DNA of 64,000 bases from positions 1,085 to 65,084 of the IMG/VR virus record IMGVR_UViG_3300008963_000003; one strand, written 5' to 3'. Both the position numbers and the translations under genes were made by a program. Position 1 is the first letter of the stretch. Each line of letters begins with the position of its first letter. Below the pieces are notes generated by a model. That model saw only the letters and a program-made list of their open reading frames with translations. It was not told the origin of the DNA and searched no databases. This DNA is from a virus (taxonomy: Duplodnaviria; Caudoviricetes). This document shows positions 1 through 64,000 of the stretch, in pieces.

Positions 1-1
1 C

Positions 2-3000
2 TTCAATTTCTTTCACCGAATTTGGTGTATAATCTAGTATATATTCAGCAGTAACTCCATCACCAATTTTAATATCATTTATAATTTGGTCTTTATATGG
101 TATATTTTCTGATGTTCCTTGGCCAACTACTTTTTCGCCTGCTAAATGCACTGTTTTAATACCTGTACCCAATGTACCTCTTCTTAATTGTCTTAATAGA
201 TTTCCTTGTTTTACAAAATATTCTATTCTTTCCTTATCTATCCAAATAACACCAGGAATGCCCAATAATTTATTAGGTTCATCGATTCCTGTAGCATCTT
301 CCAATTCAATTATATTATCATAATATTTTAAATCCTTAGATAGAGTATATGAATTTTTTTCTGATAATCTCTTATAATGATATCTATTAAGTATGTCTTT
401 GAAAATTCTAAATGCATACTCAGATCGTGCAACCGGCGCTGTAAAATGTAAAATATCTATAATATCGCCATCTTGTATTTTTTTATCAATTTTAAGTTGT
501 GTTTTGTTTTCAAGAATATAGTCAACTCCAGCAGTTAGGAGAGTTCCATTAAGCATAACCCACACATGTTTGGCGCCGATTGCAGGTTTTCTTAGATTTA
601 CAATGCCTCTAGTTAAACCATTTCTAATTAGTATTTGTTCCGGATCTACTAATGCAGTAGTAGGTTCATAAACTACCGAAAGCGTTTGTCTTTCAAATTC
701 ATTAACATCATGATTACTGAATACATAGATTTTAATATCTGTATAATCATTTGTTCTTAGATTCAATCTTTCACTTTGGATAACATCAAATGATTTTACA
801 GTAAACTCTGTACTATCTTCATTGTAAAAGATTTTGCTACTGTCACTCACATATAACAGTTTAAACAATTCTCTTACATATCCTTGTAATGTTAAAAATA
901 CAGTGTTTCCTGTTTGTGTAAAATCTTGTAAAACCATTGGAATTTGTGTTCCATCGTCGGCTGTTATTACAAACTCTTCACCTGTGTTAATTGTCCAATT
1001 TACTCCATTAGGAAGATCAATTTCTAATTGTGTATCAACTGTGGTATATTCAGCATCTTTTAATACACTAATAATTAATTCACTTCCTGGAATTATATCC
1101 TCTTGTTTTAAAAATACAACTCTATAATTAACAGGATCATATGAATATCGACTATTATCAATGAGATTTCCATTAATATGTATAACAATATCGTTGGTTA
1201 TCAGATCGCTTGGATTATCAAACTGCCAAGCTTGTATGTCATACTGATTATCATTGGTCATTGTATACTTAATAGCATAGCCTGGATTTAAAAACCTATT
1301 TCCGTCTTTTACTAGTACATATCTAGCAATTGGTTGTTTGTTAAATGGATAAGGAATTGGGTTATTATCAGTGTTAAATTCGTGAGCTTTATTGACTCCA
1401 TTTTGATTAAATGTTCGATCAATAATCATTTGACTATAAGATTGATTTTCAGTATTATATATAGTGTAATTTATAACGGCGCCATTTTCTGGTGCAGTAT
1501 TAAAACTGATTACTAATCTATTTTCTTTATCCCCGTAACTACTGTCTGCTTTTTCTAATACAAAATTATCTACTTTTACACCATTTACTGTAACAAACGC
1601 ACTAACTGGGGTGTTGTAGTTAACACTTGAAACAAAGCTTTCTGTACTTCCGTCACCAAAATCAAAATCTGAATCAATGATATTTGTACCGTTTGCACCA
1701 ATTGTTAAAATACTTAAAATTTTATTTTCAGCAGGTGCATTAGTTAAATTAACAGTTTTAGACTCAAAATCAATTTGATATTCGTCTGTGTGCAATACAC
1801 GATTGTCTATTTTTATTATAGTCGATTCTATAGTAAATGGATATTGCTCAAATGAATAAGTTGTAGTTGAACCATCTGTTATAAAATTCTCAACTGTAAT
1901 TTGTCCCTGGCCATCGGGCACTTTGTGATATACTTGCATATCCATAGTATCGGCTACTTGACCAGGTATTAATTCTTCAGGTCCTTTGCTGGTAGTTTCT
2001 GTTACAAAACCATCACCATCGACAATAATTTCTCCACTGTCGATACCTTTGGCAGTGGTATACTGAAAATTGCCACCGCTTAACTCTGTGTCAAACAGTG
2101 CATCACTTGGTACAAAACTTCCGTCACTAGTCGATTTTCTAATTACAATTACATCACCGTCTTGAGTCGGAATTACTTCTTCGTCAATGTCAATTGTATT
2201 AGTAATTCCGTCGCCAATAATACTGTTTATAACTGCATTTTCGTTTGATACTGCACTGCTGCCGTCAAAATTTGGATCATCTAATCTTACATTATTTTTA
2301 TAAAAATTGTAAACTACACCAGCTTCAAGAGGTGATTTTAATTCAAGTGTCTGAGTGCTTCCGTCTAATATAAAAATCTGATCATCAAACACTTGATCAA
2401 AAGTATCAAACCTAGTAGTGCCAAATCCACTGCTTGCAAAACCTTGCTCATTTCCGAAATCAATGCTATCAACTTGAACTCCGCCGTAATCAATTCCGTC
2501 CATTAGCTGTGCTAAATCATTTCCTGCCATTCCAGTAGTTGGATTATAGAAAAAATTAATTCTATCCGAAGCTGACAACATTTCAATTGATTTTTTATAA
2601 TTAACAGTTATATTAGCATCCAAAGCAGGAGCATTTTCAAAAGTAATTTTTCCTAATTGACGCTGATAAGATTTTGTATTATCAACAACGTTTTCGACAA
2701 AAAATTCGCCTGATAGCAATTCAATATTGTTTACAAAGATTGTAATTGTATCTCTATTAGTATCAACTGGATATCTTAGAATAAATTCTTTTTTTGAACC
2801 TGTTCCTGTAAAAGCATCTGTTTCGTCTAATTTAGTAAACAGATAATTACCTGTTATTCTATCAAATTTCACAGTAACATGTGTGCTTCTAGTTTTATTA
2901 TTTCCTAATATTACATTTGCCTTAGCAGGTTTACTAGATTCTGCTTGAGAACCTTCAAATGTAACTGTCGGAGCAGTGATATATATTGCGTTTGAAACAT

Positions 3001-5167
3001 CAATATCAATACTATTAACAACTCCTTTTGCAATAGTAGCCTTTCCTTTTAAAGTCGGGCCGCCGCCGCCGGAGATAGTTACAAAAGGTCCTGATGACCA
3101 ACCGGAGCCGCCGTCACTGATTACTATGTCTTTGATTTCAAACCCTACATTGTCAAGCCAAGATTTTTGAGGTGGAGTTTGTATAGCGTCATTGATTCCT
3201 GTTATTTGAGAATCAAAAACTTTAACATTTTCTGAAATAATTTTTTTAGCAATTTCGTCATACCTTGGCGGTAAGTCAAAATCAGTTACTGTGGTATTTG
3301 TCGGTTCAAGTTTTTCATAACTGCTGATGTACTCCCTTACCTTGGTTTTATAAGGTTTAACTTCATTAACATAATCTTCATAGTTTTCTAGGTTATCATT
3401 CTTAAATGTAACTTTTTGTTCTAATTCACCTACATTATGCTTGGCTTTTATAAAGCTAGTCTTAAATATCCAATCAACTGATGACTGTTCAGCTAATGCA
3501 TATCTGACACTGGCAAAGAATAATTTATTAAATTCAACTGCTAACTGATCAACAAAAATATTATCTTTGAGTGCTTTTAATATTATTCTAGTTTCTTCTA
3601 TAGCTTCTCTGTCATATAATAAAGAATCATAAACTTGATTGTCAAAACCACTGGTAATATTATTGTATAATAATTTACTAAATTGTATAGTTCCGTTTTG
3701 CCTACCAATGGTTTTATAATTCACTGTATAATCAACCTCGGGCTGATTGTCTATTTTTTGTAACAATAACCATCCGCCAGTGCCTATGTTTTCAATTTTG
3801 ACAATATCACCTATTCTATCGTTTAATGAATCAATTTCGTAACTAGCAGAAATCAGATAATCAATTGGTGTTAGATTATCAAAACCTTCGTCATACCAAT
3901 CCCTATACTGCCAATATAGATTTGTATCATAATCTTGATTATCGACTCTAAACCATTCATTGGTAGCGTCATTCCAATTGTATAGAGACCAAAATCCACT
4001 TATTGAATTGTCATTTTCAACTAATACACTGAATCTTCTAACTGATACTATTGTGTTATCATCATAATCAAAACCAGTATTTTTTACTGTGGCATTTATT
4101 ATCTGTCCTATATTGTTTATTTCAGTCTTAATAACAGCATTTTTGCCTGTACCAATAACACTTACAGTCGGTCCTTTTCTGACTGTGTCAGTTTGACTAT
4201 CATATGAAGGATCGATATAACCACGTCCAGGATTAATAATTTTTACATCGATTATTTTTCCATCTTCGATAACTGGTTCTAATATTGCTCTTGAAATTTT
4301 AGCAGTGCCAACAAACCTTAGTTCAGAATCTGTTTCAACTTTAACGTCATATGTTTTTGAAAATTTCGACGGTAAAGGATCTATTTTTGATAGAGGCGAT
4401 AAATCAAAATCATCAACAATCAAGTTTTTTTCAAGAACACTGTTTACTCTTTCAACAACTTGCTTCAAGGCTTCATTTTTGTTTACAAACATACTTTGAT
4501 TTGGATCATTGAGAATGCCGTATCTTCTAGCTGGACTGAGGTTTAAATCAGGTAATTGGTTTCTTTCTTGATCATAGCCTACTAGACTATCTATCCATTT
4601 ATCAATTATGTAATTATTTGGAATACTTGTTTCAAGTCCTTCTGATAACAACTCATATTCTCTATGAATATTTTTATCATTGTCTAATGTATTGTAATAT
4701 TCAAAATGTATGACTGTGTCTTTATCTTTAATTAAACTTTTACAATTATACAAGGCGTACTGATTGTTACCAAATATGGCAACAAATCTATATCCTGTAC
4801 CTGCTGGATCTCTTATAAGATCAGCAATTTCGCTGCCAGAAAGTTGTCTATTATCAGTGTTAGGAACTGTTTTTTTGTTCTTTACCCAGAAATAGTATTT
4901 GCTGTTAAAAGTGCTTGATATTGGATCATAAACATCAGCTCTACTGTAGCGGCTATCACCATATTTACTTTGTCCACTAATTCCGTCAACGACTCCGGCA
5001 GTAGTATCAGCTAACTGATCCCACTCTGACGGCGGAATATCACTTTCGACCCATTCGTAAACATCAATATCAAAACCTGGAATTAATCTATTCCAATTGT
5101 TTGCACTATATTCAATATTACCTTGATATGGATTATACCATTTAGTTACACTGAGATCCCACCACAA
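2..5167 (-). CDS. C-terminal continuation (about 1,720 codons, runs off window start) of the giant baseplate wedge/virion structural protein; missed by the ORF track
   Basis: Frame reads (K)LWWDLSVTKWYNPYQG at ~5167, DYVNEVKPYKTKVREYISSY at ~3350 and LDYTPNSVKEIE at the window edge. All three spot checks are in the same frame. Joined to the upstream ORF by a 1-nt shift at 5168-5172. Confidence 0.85.
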   Translation of the reverse strand, partial: MWWDLSVTKWYNPYQGNIEYSANNWNRLIPGFDIDVYEWVESDIPPSEWDQLADTTAGVVDGISGQSKYGDSRYSRADVYDPISSTFNSKYYFWVKNKKTVPNTDNRQLSGSEIADLIRDPAGTGYRFVAIFGNNQYALYNCKSLIKDKDTVIHFEYYNTLDNDKNIHREYELLSEGLETSIPNNYIIDKWIDSLVGYDQERNQLPDLNLSPARRYGILNDPNQSMFVNKNEALKQVVERVNSVLEKNLIVDDFDLSPLSKIDPLPSKFSKTYDVKVETDSELRFVGTAKISRAILEPVIEDGKIIDVKIINPGRGYIDPSYDSQTDTVRKGPTVSVIGTGKNAVIKTEINNIGQIINATVKNTGFDYDDNTIVSVRRFSVLVENDNSISGFWSLYNWNDATNEWFRVDNQDYDTNLYWQYRDWYDEGFDNLTPIDYLISASYEIDSLNDRIGDIVKIENIGTGGWLLLQKIDNQPEVDYTVNYKTIGRQNGTIQFSKLLYNNITSGFDNQVYDSLLYDREAIEETRIILKALKDNIFVDQLAVEFNKLFFASVRYALAEQSSVDWIFKTSFIKAKHNVGELEQKVTFKNDNLENYEDYVNEVKPYKTKVREYISSYEKLEPTNTTVTDFDLPPRYDEIAKKIISENVKVFDSQITGINDAIQTPPQKSWLDNVGFEIKDIVISDGGSGWSSGPFVTISGGGGPTLKGKATIAKGVVNSIDIDVSNAIYITAPTVTFEGSQAESSKPAKANVILGNNKTRSTHVTVKFDRITGNYLFTKLDETDAFTGTGSKKEFILRYPVDTNRDTITIFVNNIELLSGEFFVENVVDNTKSYQRQLGKITFENAPALDANITVNYKKSIEMLSASDRINFFYNPTTGMAGNDLAQLMDGIDYGGVQVDSIDFGNEQGFASSGFGTTRFDTFDQVFDDQIFILDGSTQTLELKSPLEAGVVYNFYKNNVRLDDPNFDGSSAVSNENAVINSIIGDGITNTIDIDEEVIPTQDGDVIVIRKSTSDGSFVPSDALFDTELSGGNFQYTTAKGIDSGEIIVDGDGFVTETTSKGPEELIPGQVADTMDMQVYHKVPDGQGQITVENFITDGSTTTYSFEQYPFTIESTIIKIDNRVLHTDEYQIDFESKTVNLTNAPAENKILSILTIGANGTNIIDSDFDFGDGSTESFVSSVNYNTPVSAFVTVNGVKVDNFVLEKADSSYGDKENRLVISFNTAPENGAVINYTIYNTENQSYSQMIIDRTFNQNGVNKAHEFNTDNNPIPYPFNKQPIARYVLVKDGNRFLNPGYAIKYTMTNDNQYDIQAWQFDNPSDLITNDIVIHINGNLIDNSRYSYDPVNYRVVFLKQEDIIPGSELIISVLKDAEYTTVDTQLEIDLPNGVNWTINTGEEFVITADDGTQIPMVLQDFTQTGNTVFLTLQGYVRELFKLLYVSDSSKIFYNEDSTEFTVKSFDVIQSERLNLRTNDYTDIKIYVFSNHDVNEFERQTLSVVYEPTTALVDPEQILIRNGLTRGIVNLRKPAIGAKHVWVMLNGTLLTAGVDYILENKTQLKIDKKIQDGDIIDILHFTAPVARSEYAFRIFKDILNRYHYKRLSEKNSYTLSKDLKYYDNIIELEDATGIDEPNKLLGIPGVIWIDKERIEYFVKQGNLLRQLRRGTLGTGIKTVHLAGEKVVGQGTSENIPYKDQIINDIKIGDGVTAEYILDYTPNSVKEIE

Positions 5168-13647: not shown

Positions 13648-16600
13648 TATTGATTGTATCCTCCACCTAATGACTCAGTATTAGTAATAATTATGTTTGT
13701 ATCCGAGTCACTGCTTTGTATTCCGGTATTTGGGTCTGATGTTTCTGTAACAATAGCGCCGCTAGCTCTAAGGCGACTAGCAGTAATTGAATCTATTATT
13801 TCAACATCGCTTACTACTGCTGAACTTACAAAAATTTCATCGTTTTCGCTCTTAATTTCGTATAAACTGCCAAAACTTTGATTAGCATCTCGCGGGACCA
13901 AAACTATACTTACAATATCTGGTGCTAAACTGTTAATCAAATATGCTGCTAGTTCACTAAAATAAAAAGTTTCGCCAAAATCCCAATTGTCTAAACTGAA
14001 ATATTGATTTATTGCATTTATAATTCGACTTTTTATATCATTATCGTTGACTACTCTTTCAGGGTTTTTTACAACTTTAAAGACTGCTTGTAAATCAAGA
14101 TTAGATTTGCTACCAAACAATGGTTTGTATTTTACTGGATGATACACTAAATCATCGCTAATACTTTTTATTTTATTAACTTCGCCTCCATAACTTAGGA
14201 ATAGCTGATCATTGCTCGGCGGAAGTGGTTTTTGATCAATTCTGTTTTGTAAATAATTTCTAAATGCAATATCATATTGTCTAGTAAGAAGATATACATC
14301 TATTAAATTACTGCTGCTAGGATCAATTCTTGCATTCTCGTCAGCTGCATGACTGTATTCAAATTTTAATAATTCTCTACCAAGAAAAGCCTTATAATCA
14401 GTTACAAGGTTCAATTTTTGGTTTGGTAAATCTAATTTTTTAAATATATCTCTATCGATAATATAAAAAACTGTGCCATTGCTATAATTTGCAAAAGGCT
14501 GAGCATTTGATTCTGTAAGTATAGGAACAATGTTTTCTTGTTCAGCATTTACATAGTTATAAACTTCTGTTTTATTTAAGAATGATTTTTTTTGGAAAAT
14601 ATATCTATCTGTTTGTGGAAGATTTTCACTGTCCACAATTTGTTTAAATAAATCAGGATCGTCAACTACACCATCTGTATCGCTATCAAAAAAAGTAACT
14701 TCGATTTTTTTGCTATCAATGTATCCTGCTTGATTTTTAAATTCTTTTGATATTTGCCAAATCCAATCAACTGTAAACGAATCTAAACTGTTTGGTTTAT
14801 TGTTATTGCTTAATATTTTTACTGTATCATTTACAATTTTACCTGTTTTACTGTTATAAATTTTATCTTTGCTGTCAAAAAAGAATCTTGTTTGATCGTT
14901 GCTTTCAAAGATATATCTTAAACCTCTGCTTTTTATAGTGTAAACTTCGCCATCGGTTTCGAACAACAGTATCCAACTACTGTCTAACTGTTGATTGCTA
15001 TTGTCTCCTTGTTTTCCTAAACTAAAATTACTTACTGTATTTAGATTATTGTTTAAAATTACACGCCATTGTCTTTGATTAAAATCATATCTTAAACCAA
15101 ATGTTTTAAATGAAAATATTTGATCAACTACTTGTCGTGTAACATCTGATGAGATTTGATTATTAAATACTGGTATTATTTCTTCTAGTATACTACGCTG
15201 AGGTATTATATCATTTAACACAACTGGACCTAAACCAGTGTCAATATCAACTACAGTTCCTTGGTCATCAACACTTATTACTTTGGTCCACAAATAATTT
15301 TTTGATCCTAGATGTGTTGCCGGTCCAGACATCAAAGTACCGTCAGGCATAAAATGAAATCCTTCAGGTGCTTTAAATTTTAAAAAACTTCCTGGTTCAA
15401 TAAATTTTAGAATACTCTGTGTAAAACTACCTATAGTAACTGGTAAATCATTTTCGTCAACAAAATAACCTGTGGTTCTGTTTGTATCTACAGTGGTTTG
15501 ATTCCAAGATATTCCTAAATTAACAATTTCTTCATTACGAGGAAATTGATCGTAATAAAAGTTTTTAGTTCGATCGTCTTTTATTATTGGTTCGACAGTA
15601 TTTCTAATAACAGATTGTATATCGTTTTTGGAATTAAATTCAAAACTTTGTATATCTTCTATTTGTTCTTTGTAAAGTATACCATCGTTGCCAAATATCA
15701 AAGTATTACTATATTTTCCTGTTGCATCTCTTAGATCAAAATTTCTACTAATACCGCTGGATGTTCTATTAACTGCTTTGGCTTTGACAATTTCTTGAGA
15801 TATTCCTAATGTTCCTACATTGTAATCTTCGCCGGTAATTAGTCTATTCTGTGTATAATAAGTAGCAGGGGCGTTTGCTTTTATACTATTGTTATCTTCA
15901 CTAGTACTCGCATTTTCTACAGTTTCTTTTAATTCTAAAATTAAATTAATAGTTTCTCTTTTTCCGTTTCTACTGATATAAGGAATTTGCACATTTATAC
16001 CAAATAAATTCTCAGGTGTAATTTTATAACTGCGATTTGCGCTGGTTCTATAATATATTTTAAATTTACCCTTAGGTAATTCGCCAAATGTACCGTCACT
16101 GAATATTAAACTAATTTTATCATTTATTCTGCTAAGAACACTGTAAATATTTCTAATGTTTCTATTGATACTGTTGTAGATAATATTGTTACCTTCAACA
16201 CTATCTACTTTGGTCCATAGTTCAGTTTCAAAATTATTGCTGTCTAATTTATATAACCAAAGATCGCTGTTATTAATATTATTGGTATCTATGTTAACAA
16301 CAGTATTAGGAGCAGCACTGTTTACTTCAAATGTATTGCTTTGAATAGTACCTTGTCTAAAATGAAAGAAAAATCCAGTATTATTGCTGCCAGATCCTCT
16401 ACCATCATCTCTATAAAGAAACGCTAACTGATTTCCTGGATATGGATCTTCTTCAAAAATATTCGAATTATCAAAATTTGTGCTAACAACTTCAAACGCA
16501 GTCGAAACACTGTCTATGCTTTTTGAAAAATTATATACTGCTAAATTTTGATTAGCACCATTGAATCTATACTGCTCTGTATTGACACCTTGAATATTAG

Positions 16601-17129
16601 ACTTTTTAATTGGTCTGCCGAACGTATTATTAACTGGTAATCCAGCATTTAATATTTTAACAAACTGTTCAAACCAATTACTATTAGTGCTATCGTTCCA
16701 TATTACAGTTTAATTAGCTAAATTAACTCCGTTGCTATCAATTATATCCTCAGTTGTACTAATACTTTCTAGTTTTAACAAACCATTTGCAGGAATATTT
16801 CTTTTAGGATTGTAACTAAGTAGTCTAGCTAAACGCAGTACTGATTCTCTGCGCTCTGCTGTTTCTATAAAGTTTTCTCGTGCATTAAGATCAGTCCTAA
16901 ACGCCAAATTTTGACCAAGGAATGCAATAAGATCAATAAGAGCAAGATATTCTGAACTTTCGATATAATCATTAAAATCTTCAGGGTAATTTTGTCTGAT
17001 ATAATTTATCATAGTTCGGCGTAAATTATCAAAATCATAACTTTGAAAATCTGCATATTTAAAACTTTGATAAATTCTTTTCCAGTCTTCAGCTAATAGA
17101 AGTCTGTTCTGACGTTCAGTATTTGCCAT
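13647..17129 (-). CDS. gp6: Baseplate wedge subunit gp6-like (~1,160 aa) with one in-frame TAA at 16710-16712
   Basis: N-terminal DFDNLRRTMINYI...ENFIETAERRESVLRLARLLSYNPKR. FSDGTFGELPKG..IYYR lies between the two ORF-track pieces, in the same frame. IKANAP..YYTQNRLITGEDY follows. Confidence 0.85.
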
Positions 17130-24594: not shown

Positions 24595-25608
24595 TTGTTT
24601 AAAAAAGCAGCAGTATTTACTGACTTACATCTAGGCTTAAAAGGCAACAGCAGAATACATAATCAAGATTGCGAAGATTTTGTTGACTGGTATATTAAAA
24701 CTGCCAAAGAAAACAATTGCGAAACTGGTATTTTTTGCGGTGATTGGAATCACAATCGCAACAGTCTTAACCTTACAACAATGGATACTGGTATTAGGTT
24801 ACTAGAAAAATTAGGTTCTGCATTTGAAAAATTTTATCTTTTTGCCGGCAATCACGATTTATATTACAAAGACAAACGTGATATTAAATCCACTGAGTTT
24901 GCAAGACATATTCCTGGCATAACCGTAGTTGATGAAATTTATCAAGAAGGCGATGTTGCACTAGTGCCATGGTTAGTAGGTGATGAATGGAAAAAAGTAG
25001 CGAATCTTAAAGAAAAATATGTATTTGGTCACTTTGAATTGCCCAGCTTTTACATGAATGCTATGGTTAAAATGCCAGATAACAGCGAGCTTAAGTCAGA
25101 ACATTTTAAAAATCAAGAATATGTGTTTTCGGGACATTTTCACAAACGTCAAAATCAAGGCAAAATACACTATATCGGAAACGCTTTTCCTCATAACTAT
25201 GCTGATACCTGGGACGACGAAAGAGGAATGATGATACTAGACCTCGAAAACAGTTCTAGCCCTGAATATGTTAATTGGTCAGATTGTCCAAAGTATAGAA
25301 CTATTAAACTTTCTCAGCTAATCGACGAAAAAGATCAATTAATAAAAAATAAAATGTATCTTAGAGTTACATTAGACATTGATGTAAGTTTTGAAGAAGC
25401 TAGTATGATCAAAGAAACTTTTATAGAAACCTATAAGTGCAGAGAAATTACATTGATTCCACAAAAACACATCGAAGAAGTAAACACAGATTTAGATATT
25501 ACTCAATTTGAAAGTGTTGATCAAATTGTTAGCAACGAAATACTTGCAATCGAAAGTGACAGTTTTGACAAATCTACACTTCTTAACATTTATAATGGAT
25601 TACAATGA
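24595..25608 (+). CDS. gp47: Recombination nuclease subunit (Mre11/SbcD-like)
   Basis: Metallophosphoesterase motifs DLH, GDWNH, GNHD, GHFH. TTG start with GAGG SD. Confidence 0.92.
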   Translation: MFKKAAVFTDLHLGLKGNSRIHNQDCEDFVDWYIKTAKENNCETGIFCGDWNHNRNSLNLTTMDTGIRLLEKLGSAFEKFYLFAGNHDLYYKDKRDIKSTEFARHIPGITVVDEIYQEGDVALVPWLVGDEWKKVANLKEKYVFGHFELPSFYMNAMVKMPDNSELKSEHFKNQEYVFSGHFHKRQNQGKIHYIGNAFPHNYADTWDDERGMMILDLENSSSPEYVNWSDCPKYRTIKLSQLIDEKDQLIKNKMYLRVTLDIDVSFEEASMIKETFIETYKCREITLIPQKHIEEVNTDLDITQFESVDQIVSNEILAIESDSFDKSTLLNIYNGLQ

Positions 25609-27383
25609 TTAAAATACAAGATCTTACAGTAAAAAATTTCATGAGTGTCGGCAATGTTACACAAGCTGTAAACTTTAACGACGAAAACTTAACTCTAGTG
25701 CTTGGAGAAAATCTTGACCAAGGCGGAGACGACAGCGGTTCACGCAACGGAACAGGAAAAACTACGATTATTAATGCTCTTAGTTATGCATTGTATGGAC
25801 AGGCATTAACTAATATCAAACGTAATAATCTTATTAACAAAACCAACAGCAAAGGCATGTTGGTGACATTAAATTTCGAAAAAGATGGAAATAAGTTTCG
25901 TATTGAGCGCGGAAGATCCCCTAATGTATTAAAATTTTACATCAATGGTCAAGAACAAAGCGACGAACTTAACAATGAAAGTCAAGGTGATAGCAGAAAA
26001 ACTCAAGAAGACATACAAAATCTGCTAGGTATGAGTCATAATATGTTTAAACATATCTTAGCATTGAACACTTACACTGAACCATTCTTGAGTATGAGAG
26101 CAAATGATCAAAGAGAAGTAATTGAACAACTACTTGGTATAACTATACTTACAGAAAAAGCTACTTTACTTAAAGAAAAAATTAAAGAAACTAAAGAAAG
26201 TCTAACTGAGGAAAATCTCAGAATCAGTGCTATTGACGAAAGCAACAAAAAAATCAATGAGAGTATAGAAAACTTAAAAAGTAGACAGCGTGCATGGGCA
26301 GCAAAAAAAGCCAAAGATCATGAAAATCTTCTTGCTGCTATTGATGAATTAGAAAAATTAGATATTAACAAAGAACTTGAAGCACACGAGACACTGCAAA
26401 ATTGGCACGAAATGAACAATCAAATTCAATCTTTGACTAAAGAAAAGTCAACTTTAGAAAGTGCATTGATAAGAGCAGATAAATCGGTTGAAAAATCTAA
26501 AAAAGACATTGAAGATCTTGACGATGCAGTGTGTTATGCCTGCGGTCAAGAACTACATGAAGACAAAAAAATAGAAATTGTAACAAAAAAGACACAAGAG
26601 TACAAAGAAGCTGTTGAATATCAAAACGATCTTGCTCAAAAACTAGAAAAAGTTATATCTCAGCTTAATGAAATCGGTGATATTGATGGCAAGCCTAACA
26701 CATTTTACGAATCAGCTAAAGAAGCATACGAACACCGAAGCAATGTAGAAAATCTTAAAAGTGCGCTAAAAAATAGCAACGAGGAAGACGATCCTTATCA
26801 AATACAAATTAACGAACTGAATCAAACCGCTATTCAGGAAATAGATTGGACAACAATCAACGAACTGACCAACGAAAAAGAACATCAAGAGTTTCTGCTC
26901 AAGTTATTAACCAATAAAGATAGCTTTGTCCGCAAAAAAATCATTGACCAGAATCTTGCATATTTGAATAATCGATTAACAACTTATTTAGATTATCTTG
27001 GATTACCTCATCAAGTTACATTTCAAAACGATCTTTCGGTTGAAATTACACAATTAGGACAAGATTTAGACTTTGATAATCTCAGTAGAGGTGAAAGAAA
27101 TAGACTTATATTAGGAATGAGCTTTGCATTCAGAGATGTTTGGGAAAATCTCTACCAATCTATTAATTTACTGTTTGTAGACGAGTTAATTGATAGTGGT
27201 ATGGATACTTCGGGCGTCGAAAATGCAATTGGAGTATTAAAAACAATGACTAGAGAAAGAAACAAAAACGTTTTCCTTATCAGTCACAAAGACGAATTAA
27301 TAGGCAGAGTAAATCATGTATTAAAAGTTGTTAAGGAAAATGGCTTTACTACTTACTCAAATGATGTTGACATAGTAGAATAA
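25605..27383 (+). CDS. gp46: Recombination ATPase subunit (Rad50/SbcC-like)
   Basis: Walker A NGTGKTT, coiled coils, CYAC zinc hook, LSRGE signature, LFVDE Walker B, ISH. Confidence 0.93.
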   Translation: MIKIQDLTVKNFMSVGNVTQAVNFNDENLTLVLGENLDQGGDDSGSRNGTGKTTIINALSYALYGQALTNIKRNNLINKTNSKGMLVTLNFEKDGNKFRIERGRSPNVLKFYINGQEQSDELNNESQGDSRKTQEDIQNLLGMSHNMFKHILALNTYTEPFLSMRANDQREVIEQLLGITILTEKATLLKEKIKETKESLTEENLRISAIDESNKKINESIENLKSRQRAWAAKKAKDHENLLAAIDELEKLDINKELEAHETLQNWHEMNNQIQSLTKEKSTLESALIRADKSVEKSKKDIEDLDDAVCYACGQELHEDKKIEIVTKKTQEYKEAVEYQNDLAQKLEKVISQLNEIGDIDGKPNTFYESAKEAYEHRSNVENLKSALKNSNEEDDPYQIQINELNQTAIQEIDWTTINELTNEKEHQEFLLKLLTNKDSFVRKKIIDQNLAYLNNRLTTYLDYLGLPHQVTFQNDLSVEITQLGQDLDFDNLSRGERNRLILGMSFAFRDVWENLYQSINLLFVDELIDSGMDTSGVENAIGVLKTMTRERNKNVFLISHKDELIGRVNHVLKVVKENGFTTYSNDVDIVE

Positions 27384-27637
27384 TGGACGATACACAGGAT
27401 AAATTAGCACAAACCTATCTCAATTACTTTGATGCAAACGAAAAGTTTGAGAAAAGACCCAGTGAACGAACTAAACGCACTGCCAGAAGAGAATTGCGTA
27501 AGCTTATAGCACTGGCAAAACAAAGACAAAGTGAGATTCAGGAAAAATATGATGTTGTTTTAGAAGAATTAAGAGCAAACAACAAGTGGCAATGCAACAA
27601 AAGACCACAAAATTCAAAAAAGGCAAAGGACGATTAA
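27383..27637 (+). CDS. Small basic helical protein, possibly Hc1/histone-like DNA-binding
   Basis: YFDANEKFE...RTARRELRKLIALAKQRQSEIQ resembles phage Hc1-like proteins. Coupled to gp46. Confidence 0.45.
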   Translation: MDDTQDKLAQTYLNYFDANEKFEKRPSERTKRTARRELRKLIALAKQRQSEIQEKYDVVLEELRANNKWQCNKRPQNSKKAKDD

Positions 27638-27656
27638 TTGATTTTATACATAGTGT

Positions 27657-28091
27657 ATGAGTTGGACGTATCAAGGTCAAAAAATTGACAGTATTCCAGA
27701 AGAATACGAAGGATTTGTATACTTGATAACAAACCTTTCTGATAATCGCAAGTACATAGGCAAAAAATTAGCAAAATTTAAAACTTCTAAACCACCACTT
27801 AAAGGCAAAAAGAATAGAAGAAAAGGCAAAAAAGAATCTGATTGGCGCGATTATTGGGGTTCATCTGAACAACTTAATCGAGATGTTGAAAAACTAGGCG
27901 AAAAAAATTTTACTAGAGAAATACTTTATTTTTGTACATCTAGAGCAGAAATGAGTTATTTAGAAGCCAAAGAACAGTTCGACAGGCGTGTTTTAGAATC
28001 AGATGAATACTACAACGGCATTATTAACGTAAGAGTAGGCAAATCAAAGACTCTTGTAGAGGCACTTCAAAACAGAAACAAGGCTATATAA
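27657..28091 (+). CDS. GIY-YIG family endonuclease (EndoII/Seg-like, stand-alone domain)
   Basis: GFVYLITN...RKYIGKK, YWGSS, FTREIL, LEA, YYN. Confidence 0.85.
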   Translation: MSWTYQGQKIDSIPEEYEGFVYLITNLSDNRKYIGKKLAKFKTSKPPLKGKKNRRKGKKESDWRDYWGSSEQLNRDVEKLGEKNFTREILYFCTSRAEMSYLEAKEQFDRRVLESDEYYNGIINVRVGKSKTLVEALQNRNKAI

Positions 28092-28092
28092 C

Positions 28093-28563
28093 GGACAATA
28101 TTGACTCCATGTCCTTCAAAATCCAGCCGAGGTAATGCTCGTAGCCGGTGGTGTGAAGAGTCCGCGTGAAGAAGTATACGATAGGCTTTAAAAGATTGTG
28201 GCTCTGAGAAAAAGCAACCACAAAGGTAACTGTTTTCGCTTGGTAGGGAACGTGTGCCTTCCGTTGATATGACGAAGCTTGAGTAGGGGGATACCGGTCA
28301 ACCGCCTCCGACAAAATGTTTTTTACATATGCATTTTGAATCTCATTTACCAAGTGTGCGAAAGCAACTCGAATGATGTTCTTTTGTCACTTCGCCCGGC
28401 AACGGGCGAAGTATGACTACACAATCTGAATGATATTATACACATATGATACTGCTTCGCAGTACCATATGCTTTTATACGTTGAATACGTTGTCTTTCT
28501 TCATCAAAATAAAATAATGTGATTGAGCGACAGCGACAATCACAAGTGAGCTTTAGCTCACTT
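28093..28563 (+). ncRNA. Candidate large structured non-coding RNA (or hairpin-rich origin), unassigned
   Basis: About 10 hairpins, GNRA tetraloops on the + strand (GCAA 28399-402, GAAA 28360-63) and long-range pairing 28238-45 with 28348-55. Locally GC-richer than the flanks, with no credible ORF. Confidence 0.65.
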
Positions 28564-28565
28564 CA

Positions 28566-28573
28566 TATAAATA
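28566..28573 (+). promoter_or_regulatory. T4 late promoter TATAAATA
   Basis: Exact consensus ending 25 nt before ATG 28598. Confidence 0.8.
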
Positions 28574-28597
28574 ACTTACATTGCTGGAAACATTCTG

Positions 28598-29803
28598 ATG
28601 AAATTACAAGAATTATTAATTGAAAACACTGAAACTCCTGAGTTGACTTTGCAGAGATTTAATCCTGATCTTGATGCAAGTATTATAGGACAAGTGAACG
28701 ACTCTGATAGATTTTTGGTTAGAGCCGGTGGTGAAGTGTTTAGATTTGACAATGAATCTGATGCAGAACGATTTGAAAGAAGATACAATCGTGGAGGAAG
28801 CGAAACAAGAACTAGACTGGTTAACAGCAACAATATTCGATCTAAAAGAATCAACATAGCACAGAAATTCAGCAGTGCATGGAAAGGTCTTGAGGATGTG
28901 CCTGCAAACAAACGCAGTTCTGTTAGACGCTTTGTAAACGGATTTGCTGATATTCCTGGTGTTAAGTTGATGGGTAGAATATTTGAAGCAATGGGATTTT
29001 CATATCTGTTGTTGGAAACTCATGCCTACAACGTGGCTTACTTTCAAGATCAAGCAGAAATAGGACCAGAGGCTGGCGGAATGAGTCAACAAGAAGCAGC
29101 TGATCACATTATTGCAGCACAGGCCAGTCTAGGTGCACAAATTACTACGTTATTGCTTGTGTCTCTTAGCAGCGGAATGCGCAAAGTTCGTCAACTTATA
29201 ACTGGCGTTAGATGGGGTGTAAGAGCAATACAAGGAACTGCCGCAGCCACTGGCGTAGGTTTTTTTCCTGCGATAGTTAGCATGATTGTCACTGAAGCAG
29301 GATTTCTGCTTGCTCAGTACATGTTAACACGTCCCAGTGTTCAAAGAGCTCTTACAGAGTGGTTGGTTGAATACATGAGCAACAGTGTATTAAGAACAGT
29401 GTTAGAAGGCATGGCAAGTATCACTGGCACTGGACTAAGAGCAGCCAATGCAGCACTGGACAGTGTAACTGATGGGGCTGTGGGCATGGATGAATTGTTG
29501 AACCGCGGAGGATTCACTGAACAACAAAGATCCACGCCTGCTGGCAATGCCTATGCCAGCAGTGAATGGGCCAAGTTGACTTTTCAAAACAGTTTGTTTC
29601 CTGAAGGCACTGCCAGTCAGTTGGTGGAATATATTCCACCAGGGCAGAGAGAAAGACTGATTTTAAACAAAATGAATTTAACTCAAGCACCTGGTGCTCA
29701 AAGTTCTCAGGATCAAATCGGTGGTACAGGTGCCACCGCGCCTGGCGACGCAGGCGACGGAACCAGAGGAACTGTAGGACAGCCTTCTGCTGAAATTGAT
29801 TAA
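28598..29803 (+). CDS. Late hypothetical protein, candidate internal head/ejection protein
   Basis: Late promoter, N-terminal MKLQELLIE and central hydrophobic Gly/Ala-rich helices. Confidence 0.55.
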   Translation: MKLQELLIENTETPELTLQRFNPDLDASIIGQVNDSDRFLVRAGGEVFRFDNESDAERFERRYNRGGSETRTRLVNSNNIRSKRINIAQKFSSAWKGLEDVPANKRSSVRRFVNGFADIPGVKLMGRIFEAMGFSYLLLETHAYNVAYFQDQAEIGPEAGGMSQQEAADHIIAAQASLGAQITTLLLVSLSSGMRKVRQLITGVRWGVRAIQGTAAATGVGFFPAIVSMIVTEAGFLLAQYMLTRPSVQRALTEWLVEYMSNSVLRTVLEGMASITGTGLRAANAALDSVTDGAVGMDELLNRGGFTEQQRSTPAGNAYASSEWAKLTFQNSLFPEGTASQLVEYIPPGQRERLILNKMNLTQAPGAQSSQDQIGGTGATAPGDAGDGTRGTVGQPSAEID

Positions 29804-39748: not shown

Positions 39749-39763
39749 TAGATTTAAATTTTC

Positions 39764-39791
39764 AAAAATAGGCCCTACGGGGCCTATTTTT
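39764..39791. terminator. Intrinsic (bidirectional-type) terminator after capsid gene
   Basis: AAAAATAGGCCC-TACG-GGGCCTATTTTT. Confidence 0.85.
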
Positions 39792-39819
39792 ATGACTAAA
39801 TATTCACAGAGGTGAAACA

Positions 39820-39972
39820 ATGAAATATTCAAAAGAAAAAATGAAATATTACTCTTTGCTTGCACAAGGTAAAATGAAAAAAGCTGCAAAAATAAAACAA
39901 AACTTAATTGAAAGAGTACTAAAAAAACGTGCAAAAGGTAAATCTCTTTCAACTTGGCATGTTATAAAGTAA
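39820..39972 (+). CDS. 50-aa Lys-rich basic peptide (not in ORF track)
   Basis: ACTAAATA late-type box, GAGGTG SD. Sequence MKYSKEKMKYYSLLAQGKMKKAAKIKQNLIERVLKKRAKGKSLSTWHVIK. Confidence 0.6.
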   Translation: MKYSKEKMKYYSLLAQGKMKKAAKIKQNLIERVLKKRAKGKSLSTWHVIK

Positions 39973-39997
39973 TATATGATTTTTATGGAGGTTCATT

Positions 39998-40195
39998 ATG
40001 TTTACAGGAACCATTTATGTTTATAATAACAAGAGAAAATATAACATTATAAGACCAGATAAGTGGACTACTGGGCTAATAGATATTTTATTTGAACAAA
40101 AAGGTGACTACGTGGTTGGCGAAAAAGTACAATACAGATACAAAGAAGTCAACGGAAAAAGATATGCAGAATATATTAAAAAAATAAATGCATAA
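39998..40195 (+). CDS. Degenerate cold-shock (OB-fold) domain protein
   Basis: GGAGG SD. MFTGTIYVYN.KRKYNIIRPD...DILF...GEKVQY...GKRYAEYI follows CSD spacing. Confidence 0.55.
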   Translation: MFTGTIYVYNNKRKYNIIRPDKWTTGLIDILFEQKGDYVVGEKVQYRYKEVNGKRYAEYIKKINA

Positions 40196-40215
40196 TAACC
40201 CATTTTTTATACTTT

Positions 40216-40313
40216 GATAAATACTATTGTCAAAGAGGAATGAGCCTCTAGGATGAGGACTTATGCGGTGCCCGCCGCGTATTACCTAGAACGTAACATA
40301 TAAGGAGAAACAA
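40216..40313 (+). promoter_or_regulatory. Late promoter GATAAATA plus ~90-nt structured leader
   Basis: Stems AGAGG/CCTCT, TCTAGG/CCTAGA and TATGCGG/CCGCGTA precede the AAGGAG SD. Confidence 0.6.
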
Positions 40314-40763
40314 ATGGGACGTCCACTTAATAAAAGATATTTTGGTAGATTAGCAAACACAAACGATGACAGATTTGCACCTCTAAACGACAGTGAACAT
40401 AACCTCACTGCCATTGTTAAAGTAGGTTCAAACACAGTATCAGAATCGGGAATATTTCTTGCTCAAAGATCAGAAACTGTATTCAAAGTAAATGATGCAC
40501 TAGACGGCACGGCAGTAAATGCTGACGGAACCAATGTCGACGGAACTGAAGGATCCGGAAATGTTGGATTTTGCCGACTAGTTGACAAAGATGTACCTGG
40601 CGACAACGAAATGGTTGTTAAAGGATATATCGACGGCGACGGCGACGGTGTAAATATTAGAAAATTTCACAATAGAACTGTAATTGATTTTGATAATAAC
40701 AGATATACTTGGGAAGTTCAGGATGATTCTACACAAACACTACTAGTGTTAACTGCCATTTAA
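40314..40763 (+). CDS. Putative virion structural protein
   Basis: Strong SD and late promoter. First gene of the fibre cluster. Confidence 0.6.
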   Translation: MGRPLNKRYFGRLANTNDDRFAPLNDSEHNLTAIVKVGSNTVSESGIFLAQRSETVFKVNDALDGTAVNADGTNVDGTEGSGNVGFCRLVDKDVPGDNEMVVKGYIDGDGDGVNIRKFHNRTVIDFDNNRYTWEVQDDSTQTLLVLTAI

Positions 40764-62743: not shown

Positions 62744-64000
62744 AAGCAATAGACAAATTTGAAAAATTTTCAAAACCAATTTACAACGGCCAGGATCAAT
62801 TAAAAAATCATATCTTTAAAAAATTTCCTATAATTCGCACACATGATGTTATTGATTATAGTCAGGCTGCATTGTATAAAGATACACATGATTATGTTTG
62901 GTTGGTACACAAAGATATTATTCCTTACAAAAGTTTTCCATGGTATTTTAAACCCAAACCCAATGAACCTGTGCAAATACATGCATTTCCTTATGTTTAT
63001 AAAGAAAGTCGTAGAGTAAAATCTTGGAATAAATGTCAGTTGGTCCCAACTAAACATATTTCATCTGATATAAAAAAACATATTCATATATTTGGTGAAT
63101 ATGATGTTTATTGCGGCAAAAGTCAATTTGATATTTTTTGTATAGGTGACAACACAGAACAAATACAGAAATTAAAACAAAAATTTAAAAATGTTCGCGC
63201 TGCTAAAACTGTGCAAAATGCTATGCAAGACAGTGACACTGATATGTTATGGGTTGTGTATGATGATACAATAGTAAGAGATACATTTAAATTTACATAT
63301 CACCCCGACGAATGGAGTCACGAATATGCACATGTGTTTGGCAACGGTGATATTGACCAATTAGATGGTGTAGTATTATTACCAAAATATTATAATTTAA
63401 GCAAGAAAGAAATAGATCATAGATTCTTCGCTAATAAAAAAGAAGTAAGAATCATGGCTAGTAATCCTAAACCATATGATCAATTTACTATAAACAATTA
63501 CAATGATTATCTCAATGCGTTACAAAATAGTAGAACTGAAATGTTCTGGGGTATACCCAGTGATGTCGATATTTCCAAAGATTTTGATTTTGATTTGTAT
63601 TTCAGTCACCACAACAGATTTGATAGAAATATAAATCACGTGTTTCTCAATGGAGAACATCGTGATGGTATTGTTTTGTTTAGCAAATCCTGCAAAGTTA
63701 CTCAACGCGAAATAGAAAATAGATTTATTGTAAACAAAAAAGAATGGGATACTGTAGCCAGTACTCCAAAACCCTATGATCAGTTTGTAATCAACAACTA
63801 CAACGATTATGAGTTTGCTAGTAGAACTAGTAAAACAGATTTGTTCTGGGGTATACCCAGTGATGTCGATATTTCCAATGATTTTGATTTTGATTTGTAT
63901 TTCAGTCACCACAACAGATTTGATAGAAATATAAATCACGTGTTTCTCAATGGAGAACATCGTGATGGAATAGTACTTTTTAGCAAACATAATAATGTAA
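62740..64000 (+). CDS. Repeat protein with ~100-aa GT-A-like modules, truncated by window end (not in ORF track)
   Basis: ATG overlaps the GT2 stop (ATGA) and the frame is open to the window end. Repeated [ML]FW(G/V)..(S/D)D...F.F.....HVF.NG...DG.VL. Confidence 0.8.
   Translation, partial: MKAIDKFEKFSKPIYNGQDQLKNHIFKKFPIIRTHDVIDYSQAALYKDTHDYVWLVHKDIIPYKSFPWYFKPKPNEPVQIHAFPYVYKESRRVKSWNKCQLVPTKHISSDIKKHIHIFGEYDVYCGKSQFDIFCIGDNTEQIQKLKQKFKNVRAAKTVQNAMQDSDTDMLWVVYDDTIVRDTFKFTYHPDEWSHEYAHVFGNGDIDQLDGVVLLPKYYNLSKKEIDHRFFANKKEVRIMASNPKPYDQFTINNYNDYLNALQNSRTEMFWGIPSDVDISKDFDFDLYFSHHNRFDRNINHVFLNGEHRDGIVLFSKSCKVTQREIENRFIVNKKEWDTVASTPKPYDQFVINNYNDYEFASRTSKTDLFWGIPSDVDISNDFDFDLYFSHHNRFDRNINHVFLNGEHRDGIVLFSKHNNV
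63542..63968 (+). repeat. Direct repeat with 300-bp period: 63542-63668 vs 63842-63968, 126/127 identical
   Basis: Direct comparison shows one mismatch, at 63579/63879. Confidence 0.95.

Follow-up and report, generated by a model that had tools for sequence, protein, structure and literature searches.

What occupies the gap that follows a small GIY-YIG nuclease gene in a phage genome known from environmental sequence? The stretch of DNA analysed here, called the window throughout, comprises 64,000 nucleotides (nt) of a tailed virus (Caudoviricetes; IMG/VR record IMGVR_UViG_3300008963_000003, positions 1,085 to 65,084), and an original prediction, made from its letters, had proposed that a large, pseudoknotted non-coding RNA starts there at the stop codon of the nuclease. 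We find that positions 28092-28436 of the plus strand are a real structured non-coding RNA, whose structure and family are secure. It always lies 3′ of, and co-directional with, a small stand-alone nuclease gene near two genes with Metallophos and AAA_23/SMC_N domains, which we take to correspond to gp47 and gp46 in the naming of phage T4. Its family is a large set of plus-strand structured RNAs in uncultured aquatic T4-like phages, which are probably jumbo phages.

Evidence for a structured RNA on the plus strand

The structure, with two tertiary pairings, was written out and counted on 31 distinct sequences (56 pairs, 1686 cells). Paired cells make up 87.7% of the total, against 39.0-49.8% when the partners are slid by 1-3 columns, and change on both sides of the pair, which is compensatory, occurs at 33 of the 56 pairs. 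The covariation score is 0.345 (0.05-0.09 in the slid controls), and none of 500 shuffles reached the observed values. RNAalifold, applied to six sequences, proposed 50 pairs, and 16 of these change in a compensatory way. Covariation downstream of orthologous GIY-YIG genes was one of the checks proposed with the original prediction, and it is these alignments that supply it.

Folding energy alone cannot assign the strand: a 516-nt sequence has a minimum free energy of -146.4 kcal/mol against -122.7 ± 6.2 for its shuffles (z -3.8), and a fold of equal quality is obtained for the minus strand (z -4.2). The RNA is assigned to the plus strand because it keeps G-U pairs whose counterparts on the opposite strand would be A-C; such pairs are retained in 20-30 of the 31 sequences, 30 of which have GU at a single pair within the GGGGG/CCUCC helix. 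The GC fraction is 0.45-0.46 over 28025-28399 and 0.30-0.37 in the flanks. Two open reading frames (ORFs), of 89 amino acids (aa) on the minus strand and 45 aa on the plus strand, were considered as genes and rejected, neither being conserved and the former having no counterpart in the closest relatives; the lengths of most insertions and deletions that separate close relatives are not divisible by three. The region is therefore non-coding, as the 89-aa ORF is unconserved and most length changes break the frame.

Rfam was searched over the window with gathering thresholds and over 27300-28900 with E values up to 10, and the gap had no match; ARAGORN called no tRNA or tmRNA gene in the window, and the gap found no counterpart by blastn in a collection of 50,697 phage records. 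The original prediction had likewise been unable to match the sequence to tmRNA, RNase P or group I/II cores. The genome record itself holds a single copy of the RNA. Co-transcription with the nuclease is likely, because no space is left for a promoter and no conserved element is buried within the nuclease ORF, along the whole of which synonymous change is free and even.

Domains, helices and tertiary pairings

The RNA is built of three domains, whose helices are listed in the table together with the neighbouring features. Helix P1 of domain 1 begins directly behind the stop codon of the GIY-YIG gene, and in one relative the helix takes in the UGA of the stop codon. Four of its five pairs are compensatory among the eight sequences of the window class (CGGAC/GUCCG, UGAGC/GCUCA, CGAGC/GCUCG, CUGAC/GUCAG), and in the other class, read by eye, the strands are GCAAC/GUUGC, GUAAC/GUUAC and GCAAU/AUUGC. 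The GGACA/TGTCC stem first proposed at this place exists in the window, is missing in four of eight close relatives and has to yield to P1 as the conserved helix. The CGAG/CUCG hairpin enclosed by P1 is kept in seven of the eight aligned relatives and is invariant there, hence it offers no test of covariation.

In domain 2 pairing in the helices runs at 86-98%, and compensatory changes occur. Covariation of the closing helix is seen in the six-sequence RNAalifold alignment; in the 31-sequence alignment the helix is misaligned and counts as 45% paired. This long-range helix replaces the short TGC-GAAA-GCA hairpin of the original prediction. Most of the stems named there were recovered: TTGTGG/CCACAA, AAGGTA/TGCCTT with its inner stem, GGGGG/CCTCC and the GCAA hairpin of domain 3 all covary in relatives, and the hairpin at 28312-28338 has kept its structure but not its sequence. 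The proposed pseudoknot, here PK1, is likewise borne out, with variants in relatives such as CTTGTTA/TAACAAG, CTATTA/TAATAG and CTGTTA/TAACAG. A second tertiary pairing, PK2, was detected by mutual information and joins the loop of the GGGGG/CCUCC hairpin to a segment 5′ of it in a kissing interaction; its variants include GCGUA/UACGC and GUGGAU/AUCUAC, and a local hairpin (28262-66/28270-74) competes for some of its bases. The first reading had overlooked this pairing, as it had the twin boxes of domain 3 and three more conserved hairpins up to 28562. The GCAA hairpin between the boxes is 96.8% paired, and its stem covaries, by eye, in other RNA types.

Table. Coordinates in the window of the RNA, its parts and the features around it
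Feature	Position	Strand	Remarks
Structured RNA	28092-28436	+	
Domain 1	28092-28180	+	
P1, long-range helix	28092-96/28160-64	+	encloses the CGAG/CUCG hairpin
CGAG/CUCG hairpin	28128-41	+	
Hairpin after P1	28165-68/28177-80	+	
Domain 2	28185-28365	+	
Closing helix	28185-89/28361-65	+	
Hairpin	28197-201/28218-22	+	loop purine-rich and conserved
Helix in two segments	28223-28/28255-60 and 28231-37/28246-52	+	
Helix	28280-83/28342-45	+	
GGGGG/CCUCC hairpin	28286-90/28305-09	+	
Variable hairpin	28312-38	+	
PK1, pseudoknot	28238-45 (GCUUGGUA) with 28348-55 (UACCAAGU)	+	89.3% of cells paired; 5 of 7 pairs changed on both sides
PK2, kissing pairing	28263-67 (GUUGA) with 28298-302 (UCAAC)	+	99.4% paired; 4 of 5 pairs compensatory
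Domain 3	28367-28435	+	
Box 1	28367-78 (ACUCGAAUGAUG)	+	
GCAA hairpin	28389-412	+	
Box 2	28424-35 (AUCUGAAUGAUA)	+	
Hairpin T1, then CUUUUAU	28443-28471	+	candidate 3′ end or terminator; -13.3 kcal/mol, z -4.6
Hairpin T2	28518-44 (loop GAGCGACAGCGA)	+	with T3, -22 kcal/mol, z -6.1
Hairpin T3	28545-62	+	
TATAAATA	28566-28573	+	5′ of the 401-aa ORF; presumably the T4 late-promoter consensus; read from the sequence
Metallophos protein (gp47)	24595-25608		upstream of the gap
AAA_23/SMC_N protein (gp46)	25605-27383		upstream of the gap
84-aa basic ORF	27383-27637	+	between gp46 and the nuclease; from the ORF list
144-aa single-domain GIY-YIG nuclease	27657-28091	+	PF19835 SegE_GIY-YIG, E 2.5e-34, residues 3-123; phrog_447, E 1.1e-37
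Gap	28092-28597		
401-aa ORF	28598-29803		no family match
Freshwater-2 RNA (RF02980)	40244-40316	+	53.2 bits; gathering score 49.9

Twin boxes and trailing hairpins

Box 1 and box 2 are 12-nt direct repeats on either side of the GCAA hairpin, which is of the GNRA type. At three variable positions the two agree in 57 of 57 distinct sequences; on a tree built without the box columns at least 12 parsimony changes occurred, each mirrored in both boxes, and the box-box position pairs head the mutual-information ranking. The type B RNAs described below follow the same rule at these positions, by eye. The variants of the boxes include GA, AG, AC and GG. Ordinary base pairing does not account for covariation of this mirrored kind. 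Several candidate explanations were tried and rejected: antiparallel pairing between the boxes, a k-turn or C/D boxes, a hammerhead core, an anticodon mimic and a micro-ORF, all of which the variants misfit when read by eye. A resemblance of box 1 to the 3′ end of gp46 (27355-68, 13 of 14 bases in the same sense) is confined to this window and uncorrelated elsewhere, and was put down to chance.

Behind the boxes stand the hairpins T1 to T3. At the position of T1 relatives carry hairpins with a UUCG loop and different sequence. The sequence GAGCGNNAGCGA, allowing at most one mismatch, occurs within 260 nt 3′ of box 2 in 120 of 165 distinct loci, and the window has one exact copy of it. It forms the conserved loop of T2, on a covarying stem, while T3 is free in sequence; the T2/T3 pair trails all RNA types.

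RNA types and their relation to Polynucleobacter-1

One exact 20-nt hairpin pattern is common to at least 119 viral contigs, and a relative of the nuclease or of gp46 is present in about 600; IMG/VR relatives of the GIY-YIG protein numbered 596 among 600 pattern matches. In nearly all of the 80 loci kept, 400-870 nt without a long ORF lie 3′ of the nuclease, and what fills this slot falls into types. Type A, the RNA of the window, recurs at 79-93% identity by blastn and nhmmer. At type A loci the RNA is 85-93% identical, as against 73-80% for the GIY-YIG gene and 71-74% for gp46. Type B occupies the same slot in 40 of the 58 loci with enough sequence, and where it matches the type A profile at all it does so at the two ends only. 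In a third type the first domain is the Rfam motif Polynucleobacter-1 (RF01718), which is listed by Weinberg et al. 2010 (PMC2864571, table row) as a candidate RNA from Burkholderiales and from fresh water and estuary samples.

The Rfam model of this motif has 141 positions and a gathering score of 37 bits, and domain 1 of the window does not match it in 27300-28900 at E up to 10. The connection is made by relatives. In five loci (L053, L282, L311, L318, L323) a full Polynucleobacter-1 match stands directly after the same GIY-YIG gene, with 107.8 bits in L053; 3′ of the motif, four of them (L282, L311, L318, L323) align by nhmmer to positions 247-419 of the type A profile, and in L053 the boxes, the GCAA hairpin and a UUCG hairpin can be read by eye. 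Extended rows of the 2010 seed alignment (JCVI_SCAF_1101668617863 and others; PMC2864571) contain GCAGGUAUCGGCCAACCGCCUG and CCGUUGGA, which correspond to the GGGGG/CCUCC hairpin of the window and its kissing partner. The RNA of the window itself has no Rfam match, but it is not wholly novel, as relatives carry Polynucleobacter-1 as domain 1 together with a homologous 3′ part. In the table row and seed alignment of PMC2864571 the link to a nuclease, both tertiary pairings and the twin boxes are absent. A full-text literature search found no description of this nuclease-linked RNA, and the motif-by-motif PDF supplement of that paper may add gene context.

Six bacterial loci match Polynucleobacter-1 as well (69-94.8 bits; Comamonadaceae, Limnohabitans), and none of the six has a nuclease gene alongside. 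The sequence 3′ of these copies differs by eye; no search was made there for the 3′ part of the window RNA. One bacterial genome has two copies, and one copy stands beside an IS3-type frameshift element (ALIL). In these Comamonadaceae and Limnohabitans genomes (L336, L338, L341, L344, L345, L339) the motif adjoins conserved ORFs of 153 aa and 137 aa on the opposite strand, and some 200 nt of conserved non-coding sequence come next. A pattern scan of the viral contigs for Polynucleobacter-1 gave 52 pattern matches, of which 48 had no nhmmer support and were taken as chance.

Association with small nucleases

The nuclease of the window consists of a single domain that carries a basic insert, as had been noticed at first. 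Across 139 distinct intact coding sequences its motifs and the insert are conserved and purifying selection is strong; beyond the families in the table, the protein has weaker matches to homing-endonuclease PHROGs.

Loci collected by the hairpin pattern include 80 with full flanks, 75 of which could be judged, and 39 more whose flanks are too short. Among the 75, a GIY-YIG gene lies upstream in 70 and ends 279-383 nt before the hairpin; in the other five, which represent a sister lineage, the upstream ORF has 164-173 aa and belongs to a different nuclease fold, PD-(D/E)XK (PF24608 PDDEXK_15, E 2.8e-25 for the L092 protein), the copy in L121 being assigned only through its 28-36% identity to the L092 protein. 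When loci were anchored on gp46 instead, 78 of 80 close ones have the GIY-YIG gene and the remaining two are cut off. With at least 1150 nt available 3′ of gp46, the nuclease is present in 51 of 51, and the RNA behind it is of type B in 39, type A in nine and partial in one, two being uncovered where the nuclease stands at the end of the locus.

The more distant gp46-anchored set (n = 80) is looser: 36 long-enough loci have a nuclease and the RNA, 20 have a nuclease with no RNA match (many with the nuclease at the locus end, a few with 1 kb of sequence and no match), 11 have neither inside 2.6 kb and 13 are too short. RNA without a nuclease occurs in none of the 80. Five of the 11 records with neither were searched whole, and four of them have a GIY-YIG gene farther downstream; in three of these four the RNA follows it directly or past one ORF, and the fourth, 42% identical, gave no match. 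Where the nuclease has come to lie 3.6 kb from gp46, the RNA is still behind the nuclease. Unrelated ORFs of 238-335 aa separate the two in five loci (L357, L404, L405, L415, L429), and in L357 the RNA starts at the end of the inserted ORF. Distant relatives (L357, L398 and others) carry a conserved ORF of 335-345 aa, or other ORFs of 238-296 aa, between nuclease and RNA or after the nuclease, and some have ORFs that look by eye like Radical-SAM proteins inserted after gp46.

Cultured phages present another arrangement. Homologues of the nuclease are 137-151 aa long, and those of Methylophilales phage Melnitz, S-SRM01, phiM12 and phi17:2 lack the RNA, in four of the four phages examined. The closest, from Melnitz (68% identity), is located after nrdB, and nhmmer at E up to 10 found no RNA with it; the others lie beside endolysin or recA/thyA, with the next gene overlapping or within 88 nt. 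After the GIY-YIG gene of Melnitz (L201, 3438-3587) there are only CATAGCAAC...GTTG and a TATAAATA. The CAAC/GUUG hairpin resembles the strands of P1 joined by a short loop, and it looks as if the interior of the RNA had been lost or never gained.

The type of the RNA is inherited with the nuclease allele. In 50 loci the RNA type changes twice on the tree of the GIY-YIG protein and six times on that of gp46, compared with a mean of 9.3-9.4 and a minimum of seven when labels are shuffled. Nucleotide identity to the window is similar for type A and type B loci (71-76% for gp46, 69-80% for the GIY-YIG gene), and mosaics (L001/L002 and L223) combine a start of domain 1 like that of the window with a different domain 2. 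Of 80 contigs, 21 break off in the 300 nt that follow the nuclease stop and one in the 300 nt that precede its start, a clustering that fits several alleles in one population.

Possible functions of the RNA

RNAs of large size that make several tertiary contacts are uncommon, and where a function is known they are ribozymes, riboswitches or ribonucleoprotein scaffolds. Our preferred, still tentative reading, to which we give a probability of roughly 0.4 on what the sequences offer, is that the nuclease and the RNA make up a single cassette that can be exchanged as a unit; the nuclease would act on DNA, and the RNA would act through its boxes as a folded RNA and not as a guide. The RNA would be transcribed last in the operon of the nuclease, as the 3′ end of that transcript, and would persist as a stable folded RNA ending at T1. 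The nuclease may be a DNA enzyme of the homing or exclusion type that favours inheritance of the cassette and is not RNA-guided; the RNA would work alone, by way of two identical, single-stranded boxes flanking a GNRA hairpin. Their most likely task would be to hold a single partner in two copies, this being a nucleic acid in trans or a dimer, and discrete, swappable RNA types suggest a role in conflict, be it exclusion, immunity or anti-defence.

Several observations weigh against this cassette. For the boxes, a duplex scan revealed no third, complementary segment in the RNA, mutual information gave no consistent partner within ±1.5 kb in 44 loci, and wobble-tolerant patterns gave none in the 64-kb window. 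A simple terminator scan called no site, and T1 is not a canonical intrinsic terminator. A homing model predicts empty sites, and none was found, neither RNA without nuclease nor gp46 followed directly by RNA. The nuclease is fixed in this lineage and under strong purifying selection, which fits a core enzyme or a partner of the RNA equally well as a homing gene, and the co-inheritance of RNA type and nuclease may be explained in part by adjacency alone. Finally, in one locus (L261, 3505-4312) the GIY-YIG gene is broken into pieces of 55 aa and 51 aa with its middle lost, and the RNA lacks about 100 model positions; this double damage would also fit mutual dependence of nuclease and RNA.

Such dependence is at the centre of the next reading, in which both form a ribonucleoprotein whose RNA is the recognition, guide or immunity subunit of a single-domain nuclease, with specificity set by the boxes or the variable part. 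Strict co-occurrence and co-inheritance speak for it, as do the conserved basic insert of a nuclease that has no DNA-binding domain, the discreteness and exchangeability of the RNA types and the joint damage just described. We nevertheless consider it unlikely, for one scaffold would have to serve two unrelated nuclease folds, ORFs intervene between nuclease and RNA in five loci, the same nuclease family does without the RNA in all four cultured phages examined, no segment complementary to a nearby or in-window target was found, and the bacterial copies of Polynucleobacter-1 have no adjoining nuclease. The direct partnership suggested by the original prediction is weakened by the PD-(D/E)XK genes before the same RNA, by the intervening ORFs and by those cultured homologues.

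A simpler proposal is that the fold is a cis-acting 3′ untranslated element, which only stabilises the operon mRNA or tunes the upstream ORFs. It would account for an RNA whose start abuts the stop codon of the ORF in front, whatever that ORF is, and which is trailed by hairpins. That preceding ORF varies between loci, however, and some 345 nt with two tertiary pairings and a conservation above that of the neighbouring genes go far beyond what protection of an mRNA needs, which makes this proposal improbable.

We are more sceptical still of a replication or recombination element, the alternative named in the original prediction, that is, a pre-primer RNA with downstream loading hairpins T2 and T3 in the gp46/47 cluster, comparable to RNA II of ColE1. 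The location beside gp47/gp46 and structure-specific-type nucleases, and the conservation of T2/T3 3′ of the RNA in many loci, would suit such an element. There is no change of skew at the site, and the compact pseudoknotted fold would be expected to oppose R-loop formation.

The boldest proposal, and one that we would hold to be a long shot, makes the RNA the specificity or immunity subunit of an exclusion system, in which single-domain nucleases of two folds would be directed or restrained by a swappable structured RNA whose boxes read a DNA or RNA site. Boxes that read one site would explain both their joint change and the discrete, allele-like RNA types. If the RNA does set the specificity of the nuclease, a new class of RNA-dependent DNA enzyme would be at hand; otherwise it remains a good candidate for a new phage conflict RNA.

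That the locus is not an RNA at all, and instead a decayed gene, a small minus-strand ORF or DNA hairpin repeats like Ssn/SRM sites, is barely credible: stop-free minus-strand runs of 60-87 codons occur in most copies and the minus strand folds as well, but the ORF is unconserved, indels break the frame, the G-U pairs work on the plus strand only and SRM matches are missing from the window.

The mirrored boxes, consistent in all 57 sequences and over a dozen or more events, provide a concrete experimental handle.

Genomic neighbourhood

The window is part of a 65-kb record of an uncultured phage, whose completeness CheckV puts at 18%; for this phage group contigs of 340 kb are on record. The closest cultured relatives of the Metallophos and AAA_23/SMC_N proteins are in jumbo phages (43-48% identity), where they are annotated as recombination endonuclease or SbcC/SbcD-like subunits. 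The basic 84-aa ORF has no Pfam match above threshold. By tblastn it is found in 78 of the 80 close gp46-anchored loci (L202-L281), immediately 5′ of the GIY-YIG gene in 71, and in 10 of the 80 of the more distant set; it also precedes a PD-(D/E)XK gene in two distant loci, and may represent a third component of the module.

The gap behind the nuclease had been described as the only long one in a tightly packed window, which does not hold, as seven other stretches of at least 250 nt have no ORF of at least 100 aa. ORF-poor stretches by this measure include 15993-16709, 62744-63519 and 1-5145, in which small genes or more RNAs are possible. The Rfam freshwater-2 RNA sits at the end of another, of 565 nt (39749-40313).

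Comparison with known systems

Free-standing GIY-YIG enzymes next to structured RNAs have precedents. In the parts of PMC2330249 and PMC13096335 that concern it, T4 SegB is a free-standing GIY-YIG homing endonuclease in a tRNA gene cluster. As with SegB so described, a Seg-type gene adjoins structured RNA here and is inherited with it, nuclease with RNA type, and the match to PF19835 confirms a Seg-type catalytic domain. The window nuclease, at 144 aa, has no C-terminal DNA-binding domain such as a Seg-type homing endonuclease would carry. Seg-type genes would be expected sporadically, at different loci of related genomes; this one is fixed after gp46 in all 51 sufficiently long close loci, and its homologues in cultured phages follow nrdB or stand beside endolysin or recA/thyA.

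HEARO and omega RNAs are the guide RNAs of the IscB and TnpB nucleases. A long structured RNA that abuts a small nuclease gene is common to those systems, to which PMC13565253 relates, and to ours. The nucleases of our loci are GIY-YIG or PD-(D/E)XK enzymes and not RuvC/HNH, and transposon ends are lacking. A guide-like variable end with targets was not found within ±1.5 kb or in the 64-kb window.

Ssn proteins, in the portion of PMC11893778 that deals with them, have about 94 aa (cd10448), act on hairpin repeats of single-stranded DNA on both sides of their gene and bind no RNA. The likeness lies in a single-domain GIY-YIG gene beside a conserved hairpin-forming sequence, as that portion depicts it. 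The window structure, unlike the Ssn/SRM sites so depicted, is of RNA type, with G-U and long-range pairings, and the SRM search sequence taken from PMC11893778 has no match on either strand of the window. A group I intron finds no support either: Rfam gave no such match at E up to 10, the ORFs on both sides are intact and distinct, and hairpins and a TATAAATA precede the next gene.

Among large RNAs carried by phages, GOLLD and ROOL are complex, pseudoknotted and of no known function. The window RNA matches neither in Rfam, is smaller and, unlike them, is tied to a nuclease gene. Type III toxin-antitoxin systems of the ToxIN type have tandem RNA repeats upstream of an endoRNase toxin; here, unlike there, the RNA is downstream, has only two 12-nt boxes, and the proteins are GIY-YIG or PD-(D/E)XK nucleases. 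Polynucleobacter-1 and the window RNA are both of unassigned function, but the latter is larger and modular. An orphan Rfam motif is thereby extended into a far larger modular RNA that is genetically tied to small nucleases.

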